Translations under genes and position numbers: made by a program
Notes under the pieces: generated by a model
What the model was told of the DNA's origin: nothing
Seen by the model: the letters and a program-made list of their open reading frames with translations, nothing else
The model's database searches: none
Shown here: positions 6,201-9,485 of the stretch, in pieces
Position numbering within the stretch: position 1 is the stretch's first letter
Layout: the number at the start of each line of letters is the position of its first letter
Source of the DNA: Clostridia bacterium
Lineage (GTDB): Bacteria > Bacillota > Clostridia > TANB77 > CAG-508
Reading direction: 5' to 3'
DNA length: 64,000 nt
NCBI GenBank assembly: GCA_022794615.1
Contig: JAAWFD010000006.1
Coordinates: 1,837 to 65,836 of the forward strand

Positions 6201-7663
6201 GATATGTACCAGCAGAAAACGAAATACAGCAACAATTGTGTGATATATGGTCAAAATTATTTAAGATGAAAAAAGTGAGCATATTAGATAATTTCTTCGA
6301 ATTGGGAGGAGATTCTCTAACTGCTATAAAATTTCAAACAGAAGCTTTAAAAATGAACATAAATATTAATTATAGTGACATATTTGAATACCCTACCATA
6401 AAGAGTTTGTCAGAGAAGAGTCAAGAGAAACAATTATATAGAATAGATGAGACATATGATTATTCAGAATTAAAAGAATTACTATCAATAAACACAATAG
6501 ACAATATAGAAGAACAACATAATATTGGAGATTGTGGAAATATATTATTATGTGGTGCAACAGGATTTTTAGGGGCCCACATATTAGATAAATATCTTCA
6601 AAATTCAACAGGAACGGTATATTGCTTAGTAAGAAGAAAAGAAAATATAGATTCAGAAGAAAGACTTAAAAAGATACTTAATTTTTACTTTGAAAATAAG
6701 TATGATGAATATTTTAGAAATAGAATACAAGTAGTATATGGAGATATAACAATTGATAATTTTGGGCTTAAAGCAAATGAATATAAAGAATTAGGAAGTA
6801 AAGTTGAAACTGTAGTAAATAGTGCAGCATTAGTAAAGCATTTTGGAGATTTAAAAATGTTTGAAAGTATAAATGTAATAGGAACTAAAAATGTAATAAA
6901 ATTCTGCAAAAGGTTTAACAAAAAATTGTATCATATATCTACCATGAGTGTAGCAGGAATAGCGACACCTCAAGATAATATAAGCAATGATGAAGAAAGA
7001 ATAATATTTAATGAAACTGATTTTTATGTTGGACAGAATTTAAACAATGCATATGTATATACAAAGTTTGAAGCGGAAAAAGAAATATTGAATGAAGTAA
7101 AAAATGGATTACAAGGATGTATCTTAAGGATGGGAAATATTTCAAATAGAGTGTCTGATGGCAAATTTCAAATAAATGTATCTGAAAACGCTTTTATAAA
7201 TAGAATAAAAGCCATATTAAAAATAGGAGTAGTGCAAAGCAAATTTTTAGATCATGCAATCGAATTTACACCAGTAGATGCGTGTGCAGAAGCAATCATA
7301 AAGATAATACAAAATAATACCAAATTCAATGTATTACACATTTTTGACACAAAAGTTATAAATTTTCCAGATATAATTCAAATTTTAAAAAGTTTAGGAT
7401 ATAATATAGATACAGTAGATGATAAAATATTTGCAAACAAAATAAAGGAATTTTTAAAAGATGACAACTTGAAAAGTCAAATATCAGGTTTAATCCCAGA
7501 TTTAAATAAGAATAAAACATTATCATTGCTTTCAAAAACACTACCTAATGCTTATTTTTCAACATTATATCTAAAGTCAATTGGATATGAATGGGTAGAA
7601 ATTGATAAAGAATATATAGAGAAATACTTAGGATATTTTAAAAAAATAGGATATATAGAATAA
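236..7663 (+). CDS. Bimodular non-ribosomal peptide synthetase, C-A-T-C-A-T-R (terminal thioester reductase)
   Basis: Domain motifs:
- C1: HHIISDAG at nt 632-655.
- A1: SGSTGKPKG around 2052-2078.
- T1: GGDSL around 3202-3217.
- C2: HHIISDG at 3758-3778.
- A2: SGSTGRPKG at 5168-5194.
- T2: GGDSL at 6305-6319.
- R domain: GATGFLG at 6554-6574 and YVYTK at 7052-7066.

The ORF track starts at TTG 221. ATG 236, preceded by GAAAGGAAAAAGT, is the more likely start. Confidence 0.95.
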   Translation: MENREVYGLTNPQKSIWATEQFFMGTDVNNIAATLTIRQDVDLEILEKAINAFLKNNKSFGLRFKMQEGKLVQYFTEIQDTKFEVLHLKDKKELKEVATGLSQEVFNIEEESLFKYKLYKLDNGYGGFIIIAHHIISDAGTFSLMGTEIVDNYSKLQKNENIQIKEYSYEDYIKDEKEYENGSKFIKDKEYWNEVFKDVPEVATIPSVKNKANTYEEGKSLREEFVLNQETLIKISEFCKKNKISSFNFFMAVYSIYLSRVSNLKDFVIGTPILNRTNFKEKHTTGMFINTAPLRVKIEENCDFITCAKQIAQSSLSMLRYQKYPYQMLLEDLRRKDSSIPVLFDVMLSYQVTKANDRTLEIPYEVEWLPSNTISDSIYIHLHDNDDNGTLNVAYDYQIQKYSKGDIDNIHKRILHIINQVLNNENCLEKDIEIVTEEEKNKILYEFNNTYTDYPRDKTIVDLFENQVEKTPDNIAVVCGDKKLTYKELNERANGLANYLVEQGIQKGEAIATILDRNIELIICMLAIIKAGGVYLPISTEFPKERIEYIINDSKSKIILTSQNIKLEKEDIKIVNIQNFNYDNYNKNNIKLDINALDILYIIYTSGSTGKPKGVKLSNKNLNNFVHAFTYYFEGINEEDRCLASTNIAFDVSIFEFFITLLNGASLYLYEENSITDIFKYCNNIVKNKITLLYIPPNILNDVYKILSTKDKIKMSKLLIGVEPIKSSVIKKYYKLNPNMKIINAYGPTETTICTTANILNKEDIEQDTIISIGKPICNSKLLILDKNFQISPIGVQGELYVMGDGVGNGYLNNDAKTKSSFVRINNYNLDLVAYKTGDIVKWNHNGNISFIGREDNQVKISGHRIELGEIENCIYQFPNIEKVVANIDNNNKIIAYYIAKEMIKVNDLKIFMKEKLPTYLIPNYFMQLDQFKLTSNGKIDRKALPTPKTENNVIKVNPKNKTEKILKNIYEKILKQDDISTASNFFELGGDSLSAINLSMQIYNKFNIQIGIKDIFNAPTIIELAKKIENSKVFTNENKIYKVDNNIYYPVSSAQRRMYYSASVDGKKSTLYNISGGLKLDKMPDVDRLEECFRKIINENESLRTYFEVEDGDVVQKISNQIEFHIELEKDIKSNIEEIAQKFIKPFDLSKAPLVRVKLVELKNEKSLLLIDMHHIISDGTTIKILTNQISKLYNGQNVENNAIDYKDFAVWENSNLKNGNCKESEDYWLQQFEDKIPILELPLDYVRPAKQSFEGDSIVTKLDTKYTNQIYKICKELNVTPFMLFISVYYILLSIYSRTEDIVIGTPIEGRYNSELSNIIGMFVNTLPLRNKIDIKSTFKEFLMQVREQSLRSFEHQDYPLDELIKKLEIKRDSSRNALFDVAFTYQNQSYPTMALKGIETEFYIPKTNISKFDLLLEAIPENENISFRFEYCTQLFSKEYIKMFASYYMRILKDISRNIDLPIAEINILSSKEKEQILKEFNNTTSKYPKEKSIIELFEEQVAKNPNKQALVFEDTKLTYNQLNKKANKLAHYMKEEYNVQYKDVVGILLDKSSECIISILAIIKCGAIFIPIDIEYPKERIEYILDDSNSKIVITTQKYSRLLNDDTQKICIDMENYDKFDTNNPTCNTKSDDLIYIMYTSGSTGRPKGVMITHKSVARLVKNTNYIDFSNEERILQTGSIVFDACTFEIWGALLNGGTLYLIKKENMLNQIYFERYLKENKITSIFLTTALFNQYTEASKTIFEGLRNLLTGGEAVSCKHMKLAQKNFPNLNIVHVYGPTENTTFSTYYNVKEIKNNTVPIGKAIANSTAYVVSKTGQLLPIGVPGELWVGGDGVGAGYLNMEDLTKEKFIDNPFGEGKIYKTGDLVKLLPDGNIEFISRIDNQVKIRGFRIELNEIDNVVKEYPDISKTFTTIKLIDDKKYIITYFTANQKISIGNITLYLQEKLPFYMVPQFLIQLEKFPLTINGKIDVKNLIEPELETLHRYVPAENEIQQQLCDIWSKLFKMKKVSILDNFFELGGDSLTAIKFQTEALKMNININYSDIFEYPTIKSLSEKSQEKQLYRIDETYDYSELKELLSINTIDNIEEQHNIGDCGNILLCGATGFLGAHILDKYLQNSTGTVYCLVRRKENIDSEERLKKILNFYFENKYDEYFRNRIQVVYGDITIDNFGLKANEYKELGSKVETVVNSAALVKHFGDLKMFESINVIGTKNVIKFCKRFNKKLYHISTMSVAGIATPQDNISNDEERIIFNETDFYVGQNLNNAYVYTKFEAEKEILNEVKNGLQGCILRMGNISNRVSDGKFQINVSENAFINRIKAILKIGVVQSKFLDHAIEFTPVDACAEAIIKIIQNNTKFNVLHIFDTKVINFPDIIQILKSLGYNIDTVDDKIFANKIKEFLKDDNLKSQISGLIPDLNKNKTLSLLSKTLPNAYFSTLYLKSIGYEWVEIDKEYIEKYLGYFKKIGYIE

Positions 7664-9485: not shown

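Follow-up and report, generated by a model that had tools for sequence, protein, structure and literature searches.

Which partner does a membrane histidine kinase serve when its gene directly follows that of a peptide synthetase and no response regulator lies nearby? The question is raised by a 64,000-nucleotide stretch of contig JAAWFD010000006.1 from a Clostridia bacterium (hereafter the window), in which the kinase gene adjoins the gene of a reductase-terminated nonribosomal peptide synthetase (NRPS). An earlier note on this DNA had taken the kinase for an orphan that might feed Spo0A. We favor, at a probability of roughly 0.6, a module of three parts, namely a reductase-terminated dipeptide NRPS, a HisKA_7TM-PAS kinase and a regulator that carries a receiver (REC) and an HD-GYP domain, the last of which has been unlinked from the other two but retained in the lineage of the window. 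According to this proposal, the NRPS and the kinase would be made from one transcript, and the kinase would autophosphorylate at His374 and hand the phosphoryl group on to the receiver of this HD-GYP protein, which would then alter the hydrolysis of a cyclic dinucleotide (c-di-GMP or 3'3'-cGAMP). A rearrangement beside the kinase would have separated the regulator gene in the window's lineage. The seven-transmembrane (7TM) domain might take as its input a membrane-partitioning NRPS product, such as an N-acyl dipeptide aldehyde or a pyrazinone, or the effect of that product on the membrane, in a circuit resembling the Rpf/DSF (diffusible signal factor) system.

An NRPS-coupled kinase and its probable REC+HD-GYP partner

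A scan at one genome per species yielded 553 relatives, and the best 80 loci were examined. All of them come from metagenome-assembled genomes (MAGs), most of which go by uncultured Clostridia or Clostridium sp. and a few by other names; locus L007 (CAMUDX010000008.1) represents the window's own species. In 76/76 species loci with upstream sequence, the kinase gene comes directly after the end of an NRPS homologue. The distance from the NRPS stop to the kinase start is −14 to +21 nt in 75/83 loci, with a GGAGG-like site always present, and the layout claimed earlier for the window itself (ATG at 7677, 13 nt past the NRPS stop, preceded by its own AGGGAGG) was confirmed. A reverse search from the NRPS reductase (R) domain found the kinase adjoining in 74 of 79 assessable metagenomic loci, and a distant locus (L184, 25.9% GC, 34–35% identity) still has the kinase beside the NRPS. 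Thus the synteny on which the earlier note had made its proposal depend is kept, and a kinase missing beside an orthologous NRPS did not turn up within the clade. Four of the five kinase-less loci have 39–56% GC and come from other taxa; the next gene there is acyl-AMP-ligase-like (3 loci) or encodes a phosphopantetheinyl transferase (PPTase; 1 locus). The fifth (L142, 31% GC) lies on a 3.3-kb contig, and its next open reading frame (ORF) has no Pfam family. From this distribution, the NRPS-kinase link seems specific to a clade of 25–30% GC.

Insertions between the NRPS and the kinase were not seen in the related loci, whereas insertions between the kinase and the regulator are common; across more than 80 species-level genomes, and whether the search starts from the kinase or from the NRPS, the tight NRPS-kinase coupling is the most conserved feature. 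The conserved junction strongly supports co-transcription of the two genes, and the kinase is probably also translationally coupled to the NRPS. No terminator-like site was found in 6800–12900. The earlier argument for one transcript holds in these respects, but the promoter scan speaks neither for nor against an internal promoter: promoter-like matches at the junction are fewer than in shuffled sequences (35 vs 46.5), and the scan is uninformative in 27% GC DNA.

The gene that follows the kinase in the relatives encodes a protein of 352–360 aa with Response_reg and HD_5/HD domains (Pfam). It is located at most 700 nt downstream of the kinase in 49 of the 80 species loci (44 on the same strand) and 0.7–8 kb downstream in 18; it is absent despite at least 5 kb of room in 8, and its position is not assessable in 5. 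Hence a regulator within 8 kb downstream is found in 67 of 75 assessable species. In regulator-linked loci, the REC+HD-GYP gene is the sole receiver gene and the HisKA_7TM-PAS kinase the sole kinase. The relatives' regulator combines a receiver that has the acidic pocket with the catalytic and metal-binding motifs of HD-GYP phosphodiesterases, and both HD and HHExxDGxGYP are intact in the L004, L008, P0260 and P0258 sequences. Its nearest solved relatives are V-cGAP3, PmGH and PA4781 (PDB 5z7c, E 1e-46; 4mcw, 8e-41; 4r8z, 9e-23), and one source labels it "response regulator RpfG family c-di-GMP phosphodiesterase". On the kinase side, helix 1 of the DHp domain is almost identical between the window kinase and the regulator-linked kinases, and the DHp domain as a whole is 86% identical to that of L008; on the regulator side, the receiver helix-1 region is conserved in relocated regulators. 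Judged by this adjacency, the kinase family is not an orphan family and has a dedicated REC+HD-GYP partner.

The statement that no receiver occurs in the 64 kb proved correct. Pfam found no receiver domain in about 50 ORFs of the window, phmmer with CheY, Spo0F, PhoB and NarL found none at E≤10 in its six-frame translation, and tblastn found no relic of the relatives' regulator. The word orphan therefore describes the window but not the family, and the regulator's absence from the 64-kb window does not make the kinase an orphan.

Comparison of the loci indicates that the kinase-regulator junction is a hot spot of insertion and rearrangement. Remnants of mobile elements are among the DNA that separates the two genes where the regulator is distant. 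In L058, a remnant of a type IV secretion system coupling protein (TraG/VirD4-like) and split DnaJ pieces lie between the kinase and the regulator (12475–16345). In the window's clade, which includes the window population, L007, L090 (kinase 75% identical) and L001–L003 (69% identical), the kinase is followed by variable unclassified ORFs, beyond which lie mntP and a P-type ATPase gene, with no adjacent regulator. In the sister MAG GCA_022794195.1, the locus without a regulator is on JAAWEI010000052, and JAAWEI010000084 holds the regulator, with its HD-GYP half at the contig end. Other members of this 90% cluster are full-length and have an ABC-F gene on one side and NAGPA-cmk-dapB on the other. 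From these contigs, the regulator of the sister lineage has been moved, not lost, and we infer that it likewise persists elsewhere in the window's genome. In L092, three tRNA genes flank the relocated regulator (9615–9688, 12170–12406).

The variable island now occupying the regulator's slot encodes ORF324 and ORF312, which match neither a Pfam nor a PADLOC family and hit PHROGs only marginally (E about 0.003–0.01). It is conserved in 10 window-population contigs, and its content differs elsewhere: L007 has ORF324 and another, 134-aa-like ORF, L001 has a 134-aa ORF, and L090 has ORFs of 97 and 166 aa. ORF324 and ORF312 were rejected as replacement partners, since they have no family and are missing from L001 and L090.

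The NRPS contains two Condensation, two AMP-binding and two PP-binding domains and a NAD_binding_4 domain (Pfam), arranged as condensation (C), adenylation (A) and thiolation (T) domains in the order C-A-T-C-A-T-R; it thus has two modules, an N-terminal C domain and a T-R end, the layout of a reductase-terminated dipeptide synthetase. Its TAA stop is at 7661–7663. The mechanically called ORF begins at TTG 221, and the real start is probably ATG 236, as the relatives are called at 2475 aa. The Stachelhaus specificity codes are DVFYLGAICK for A1 and DAFFLGVT-K for A2, and the enzyme probably makes a protease-inhibitor-type aldehyde. Just 5' of its predicted promoter, three direct TTTGTAAAA repeats with 21-nt spacing lie at 98–150, and TTGCAA-N17-TGnTAtAAT with a TTTGTAAAA-like spacer recurs 5' of the NRPS in many related loci; the repeats may be a candidate operator for a regulator.

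Several neighbors touch on the synthetase. An AMP-binding gene and a 4HBT thioesterase gene are located 6–9 kb downstream in the window (15598–16032 and 17108–18805), and the acyl-AMP-ligase-like gene of the higher-GC relatives, to which the window's AMP-binding gene is similar, occupies the kinase's slot after the NRPS (L188 11141–12727, L193 4735–6297, L194 11124–12734); the AMP-binding and thioesterase genes of the window are possible suppliers of an N-acyl starter. Most relatives with upstream flank have an HtrA-like serine protease gene (Trypsin_2 and PDZ) upstream of the NRPS, transcribed from the other strand and usually its immediate neighbor (for example L004 1298–2470 and L006 1263–2390). 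The window has a paralogue, 37% identical, far downstream at 47829–49073 on the minus strand. In L004, the NRPS is in two ORFs (851 and 1626 aa; 2590–9991), by either an assembly frameshift or real pseudogenisation.

A hypervariable cassette and the input of the sensor

The locus is uneven in its conservation. Mean pairwise identity among 39 species is 80% for Tex, 76% for the regulator, 71% for the DHp and catalytic (CA) domains of the kinase, 49% for its 7TM domain, 49% for its PAS domain and 44% for the NRPS. Between the window and the sister locus L001, the flanking proteins are 88–92% identical. Within the NRPS, the C1 domain is 71–93% identical and residues 500–2480 only 26–52%; within the kinase, residues 1–215 are 25–53% and residues 226–602 are 77–97% identical. 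The same pattern recurs in the close pairs L034/L057, L025/L057, L009/L034, L033/L065, L017/L030, L029/L055 and L043/L061, in which A2-T2-R is replaced jointly with the kinase N-terminus and A1 is swapped as an internal block. Extensive mosaicism of the NRPS modules (L009–L085) is also evident, with A1 or A2-T2-R exchanged between species whose C domains stay 75–98% identical, and for each module the 62 species compared hold a dozen or more classes of Stachelhaus code. Within the sensor, the breakpoint is not fixed and falls at about residue 60, 90, 165 or 215. A comparison of synonymous divergence (dS) for imported DNA in the 7TM region was dropped, because the proportion of synonymous differences (pS) is about 0.5, near saturation in this AT-rich genome.

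A variable, recombining block that extends from the A domains of the NRPS to the transmembrane (TM) helices of the kinase, between conserved flanks, is a hint of coupling with the NRPS. It is plausible, though speculative, that the 7TM domain would sense the lipophilic NRPS product, as the produce-and-sense idea of the earlier note has it. Related gut NRPSs yield dipeptide aldehydes that cyclise to pyrazinones (PMC12327764), and in Klebsiella, pyrazinones formed from peptide aldehydes serve as bacterial autoinducers (PMC11480411).

Several observations weigh against the three-part module with a product-sensing input. An internal promoter in the 3' end of the NRPS gene remains compatible with the promoter scan. 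No GGDEF diguanylate cyclase was found in 3.2 Mb of related loci, which cover this neighborhood only, and no c-di-GMP riboswitch or other RNA element was found near the operon, the only RNA hits being a T-box, a 6S RNA and tRNAs elsewhere. The samples with the exact kinase (SRR273xxxxx, SRR11195288, DRR519810) showed no overlap with those holding relocated-type regulators, which is compatible with the regulator having been lost in this one species. For the sensor, the correlation (rho) of 7TM identity with NRPS-domain identity is 0.17 for A1, 0.59 for A2, 0.76 for T2 and 0.80 for R. Furthermore, pairs that share an A2 code and have unrelated R domains show a 7TM identity of 39–57%, which equals the baseline, and pairs with 75–83% 7TM identity can differ in their A1 or A2 codes.

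Because the correlation climbs with physical proximity, linkage alone suffices for the co-variation of sensor and NRPS. Mantel-type tests of their co-divergence were significant and were rejected as functional evidence, as the correlation rises monotonically toward the junction; tracking of A-domain codes by the sensor was rejected as well, since sensor similarity does not follow the codes. Co-variation of sensor and specificity beyond linkage, the mark of an agr-like pherotype, was not found. Hitch-hiking with a diversifying NRPS 3' end would fit these data as well as receptor-ligand co-adaptation.

Accordingly, the same wiring could serve a different input, in which the 7TM/PAS sensor reads an external or host cue or general membrane stress, and operon linkage merely ensures joint production of synthetase and sensor. 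This alternative is unlikely in our estimate but deserves serious weight: a sensor similarity that does not follow the A-domain codes and a co-variation that decays with distance, as in hitch-hiking, are in its favor, HisKA_7TM domains are widespread without an assigned ligand, and a further input could enter in the cytoplasm through the PAS domain. However, a sensor of a shared cue would hardly be as hypervariable as the NRPS, with its 7TM domain at 49% where DHp-CA has 71% and Tex 80%, or drop to 25–53% between sister lineages that share about 90% identity in the flanks. The uninterrupted NRPS-kinase junction, set against the frequent kinase-regulator insertions, likewise argues against this alternative.

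The boldest version of product sensing would make the NRPS, the 7TM kinase and the REC-HD-GYP regulator an Rpf-like autocrine or quorum-sensing circuit, with a dipeptide aldehyde or pyrazinone as the signal, the 7TM domain as its receptor, cyclic-dinucleotide hydrolysis as the output, and recombination of the A2-T2-R and sensor cassette producing variants of signal and receptor specific to a species or strain. We regard this version as doubtful and hold it quite loosely. If true, such a circuit would operate in uncultured Clostridia of the gut that number hundreds of species, and the gut "protease-inhibitor" NRPS family would primarily serve bacterial self-signalling.

Integrity of the kinase, and the Spo0A and decay alternatives

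The earlier description of a multi-TM membrane domain, a PAS-like linker and a complete HisKA/HATPase core agrees with both Pfam and the AlphaFold2 model. The 602-aa protein matches HisKA_7TM (PF16927) from end to end at residues 11–229 (110.8 bits against a cut-off of 28.6; model positions 2–224 of 224), PAS at residues 232–339 (28 bits, cut-off 22.6), HisKA at residues 365–433 (25.6 bits, slightly below the cut-off of 26.9) and HATPase_c at residues 493–601 (77 bits). An alignment of 22 sequences shows no variation at His374, in the GGIAH374NLKTP box (GGIAHNLKTPIMS), or in the N, G1, F and G2 boxes, so that the phospho-acceptor histidine of the DHp domain and the HATPase_c boxes of a HisKA-type two-component kinase are all present. 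The AlphaFold2 model, built with 22 homologues, has seven TM helices (5–28, 33–58, 66–93, 101–122, 140–168, 173–193 and 203–221), a PAS fold, DHp and CA, with a mean pLDDT of 72 and about 75–92 in the membrane domain (residues 5–221). Generic PAS-HisKA kinases are the best PDB matches (HK853, ThkA and ZraS; E 1e-12 to 1e-19). A fold search with the 7TM domain matched only PAS-kinase cores, and a sequence search found no solved homologue of this domain.

Homologues of the kinase number thousands, and the best 120 are full-length with 58–100% identity. The DHp/catalytic core is about 90% conserved. Between the window kinase and those of L001 and L090, the ratio of nonsynonymous to synonymous change (dN/dS) is about 0.09 for PAS-DHp-CA. 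The 7TM region, with a dN/dS of about 0.5, is the fast-evolving part. In the window population, the kinase protein is identical in 10 contigs, and the three compared at the DNA level (L097, L098 and L101) differ synonymously only. The kinase appears to be still in use, because it is intact in three regulator-unlinked lineages, has a dN/dS of about 0.09 and keeps DHp helix 1 nearly unchanged; these features strongly support a competent, still functional HisKA kinase with a 7TM sensor. In L087, the kinase is in two ORFs (139 and 445 aa; 7945–9754), again by an assembly frameshift or real pseudogenisation.

Clostridium orphan kinases are established as feeding Spo0A, and the earlier note took the missing receiver to suggest that this one may do the same, possibly coupling metabolite production to a developmental decision, which we read as sporulation. 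The empty 64 kb fits that idea, and so does the GerA-family spore germination protein at 36943–38577 (minus strand, E 4e-161), because of which the organism, a member of a small-genome uncultured Clostridia lineage, is probably a spore-former. The step from orphan to Spo0A nevertheless fails on the family evidence: the REC+HD-GYP neighbor is present in 67 of 75 assessable species, the sister MAG retains the regulator elsewhere in its genome, specificity helix 1 of DHp is unchanged relative to regulator-linked kinases, and the sporulation kinase KinB matches in the ATP-binding domain only. Because of the family adjacency, the regulator of the sister MAG and the constrained kinase core, the kinase is far more likely to serve a dedicated HD-GYP protein than Spo0A, and we consider a true orphan kinase acting on Spo0A improbable. 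Most improbable of all is that the kinase is a decaying remnant left after the regulator's departure, as the lost adjacency in the window's clade and the variable island downstream might suggest, because purifying selection (dN/dS of about 0.09 in PAS-DHp-CA across three regulator-unlinked lineages), an intact ORF with all catalytic motifs and the synonymous-only differences within the population contradict it.

Related systems and other features of the locus

By analogy, the nearest functional counterpart of the module is the Rpf/DSF system of Xanthomonas (RpfF/RpfC/RpfG). In both, the genes of a small-molecule synthase, a multi-TM sensor kinase and a regulator with receiver and HD-GYP domains lie together, and the output is, or here would be, hydrolysis of a cyclic dinucleotide, not DNA binding; the relatives' regulator has the full HD and HHExxDGxGYP motifs for it. 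Most relatives possess the complete gene set of synthase, kinase and REC-HD-GYP regulator, and the window has synthase and kinase only. Unlike RpfF, an enoyl-CoA hydratase-type DSF synthase, the synthase here is a two-module NRPS; the kinase lacks the REC and HPt domains of the hybrid RpfC (Pfam), and the module occurs in a Gram-positive anaerobe of the gut.

Few biosynthetic genes of the human gut microbiome are as widespread as those of reductase-terminated dipeptide NRPSs, which have been studied for their effects on host proteases. The gut Clostridia family of dipeptide-aldehyde/pyrazinone NRPSs was reportedly described by Guo et al. in Cell in 2017, and the rup cluster with ruminopeptin is said to be the work of Schneider and Balskus in 2018. 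The present NRPS resembles this family and staphylococcal AusA in being reductase-terminated with two modules, shares the order C-A-T-C-A-T-R with the N-acylated members, and is likewise confined to gut Firmicutes, a likeness drawn from domain order and description. In contrast, the gene after the NRPS in the higher-GC relatives is acyl-AMP-ligase-like or a PPTase gene, not a kinase gene.

The agr cassettes (AgrB-AgrD-AgrC) offer a second parallel, since there too a hypervariable block spans the part that sets biosynthetic specificity and the N-terminal sensor of the adjacent kinase, the cytoplasmic core of the kinase is conserved, and close relatives swap the block through recombination. Here, however, the breakpoint in the sensor varies, A-domain codes are not tracked and hitch-hiking fits; moreover, the putative signal is an NRPS product and the output an HD-GYP protein, not an AgrA-type transcription factor. 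The clostridial orphan sporulation kinases share with this one a membrane/PAS HisKA architecture without an adjacent receiver in a probable spore-former, and differ in that its family partner is a REC+HD-GYP protein and its orphan state reflects a recent rearrangement in one clade.

Taken singly, the kinase is an ordinary HisKA_7TM member and the NRPS an ordinary reductase-terminated dipeptide synthetase. What appears to be undescribed in the literature searched is that, in hundreds of gut species, the two are obligately joined in an operon with an HD-GYP two-component output, together with the cassette-like diversification, and that search equally returned no description of such a module for reductase-terminated NRPSs, as the earlier note had supposed. 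The conserved association of NRPS, kinase and phosphodiesterase points to a link between a metabolite and bacterial second-messenger signalling. The locus offers a candidate ligand-receptor pair, a defined, predicted phosphotransfer partner and natural cassette swaps as specificity controls, and its interest would be greater if product sensing were true.

The features of the operon and of the slot that follows it are listed in the table. The operon probably ends at the promoter-like site that follows the kinase stop and precedes the next ORF.

Table 1 Features of the NRPS-kinase locus, with positions in the window
Feature	Position	Strand	Basis or remark
Putative sigma-A-type promoter of the NRPS-kinase operon	176..206	+	TTGCAA, 17-nt spacer, TGATATAAT; read off the sequence
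NRPS, C-A-T-C-A-T-R, two modules, reductase-terminated	236..7663	+	Pfam
Kinase Shine-Dalgarno site, AGGGAGG	7664..7670	+	Directly after the NRPS stop (7661–7663), 6 nt before the ATG
Kinase residues 1–230, HisKA_7TM membrane sensor, seven TM helices	7677..8366	+	Pfam PF16927, AlphaFold2
Kinase residues 231–345, cytoplasmic PAS	8367..8711	+	Pfam; PAS fold in the model; PAS-kinase structure matches
Kinase residues 346–445, DHp (HisKA); His374 codon 8796–8798	8712..9011	+	Pfam, invariant GGIAHNLKTPIMS
Kinase residues 446–602, HATPase_c, and stop codon	9012..9485	+	Pfam, invariant N/G1/F/G2 boxes
Promoter-like site, TTTACA, 18-nt spacer, TG-TATAAT	9505..9534	+	Best of the region; 11/12 matches and extended TG
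Variable island, ORF324 (9589–10563) and ORF312 (10654–11592)	9589..11592	+	Slot of the REC+HD-GYP regulator in relatives

The window as a whole has a GC content of 27.4% and is housekeeping chromosome, with pyr genes, pheST, metG, relA, murB, ruvC and proS. A T-box leader (103.6 bits) at 24394–24654 lies upstream of pheS/pheT (25206–28685), and a 6S RNA gene (75 bits) at 34334–34528 is located beside rpsT on the opposite strand.

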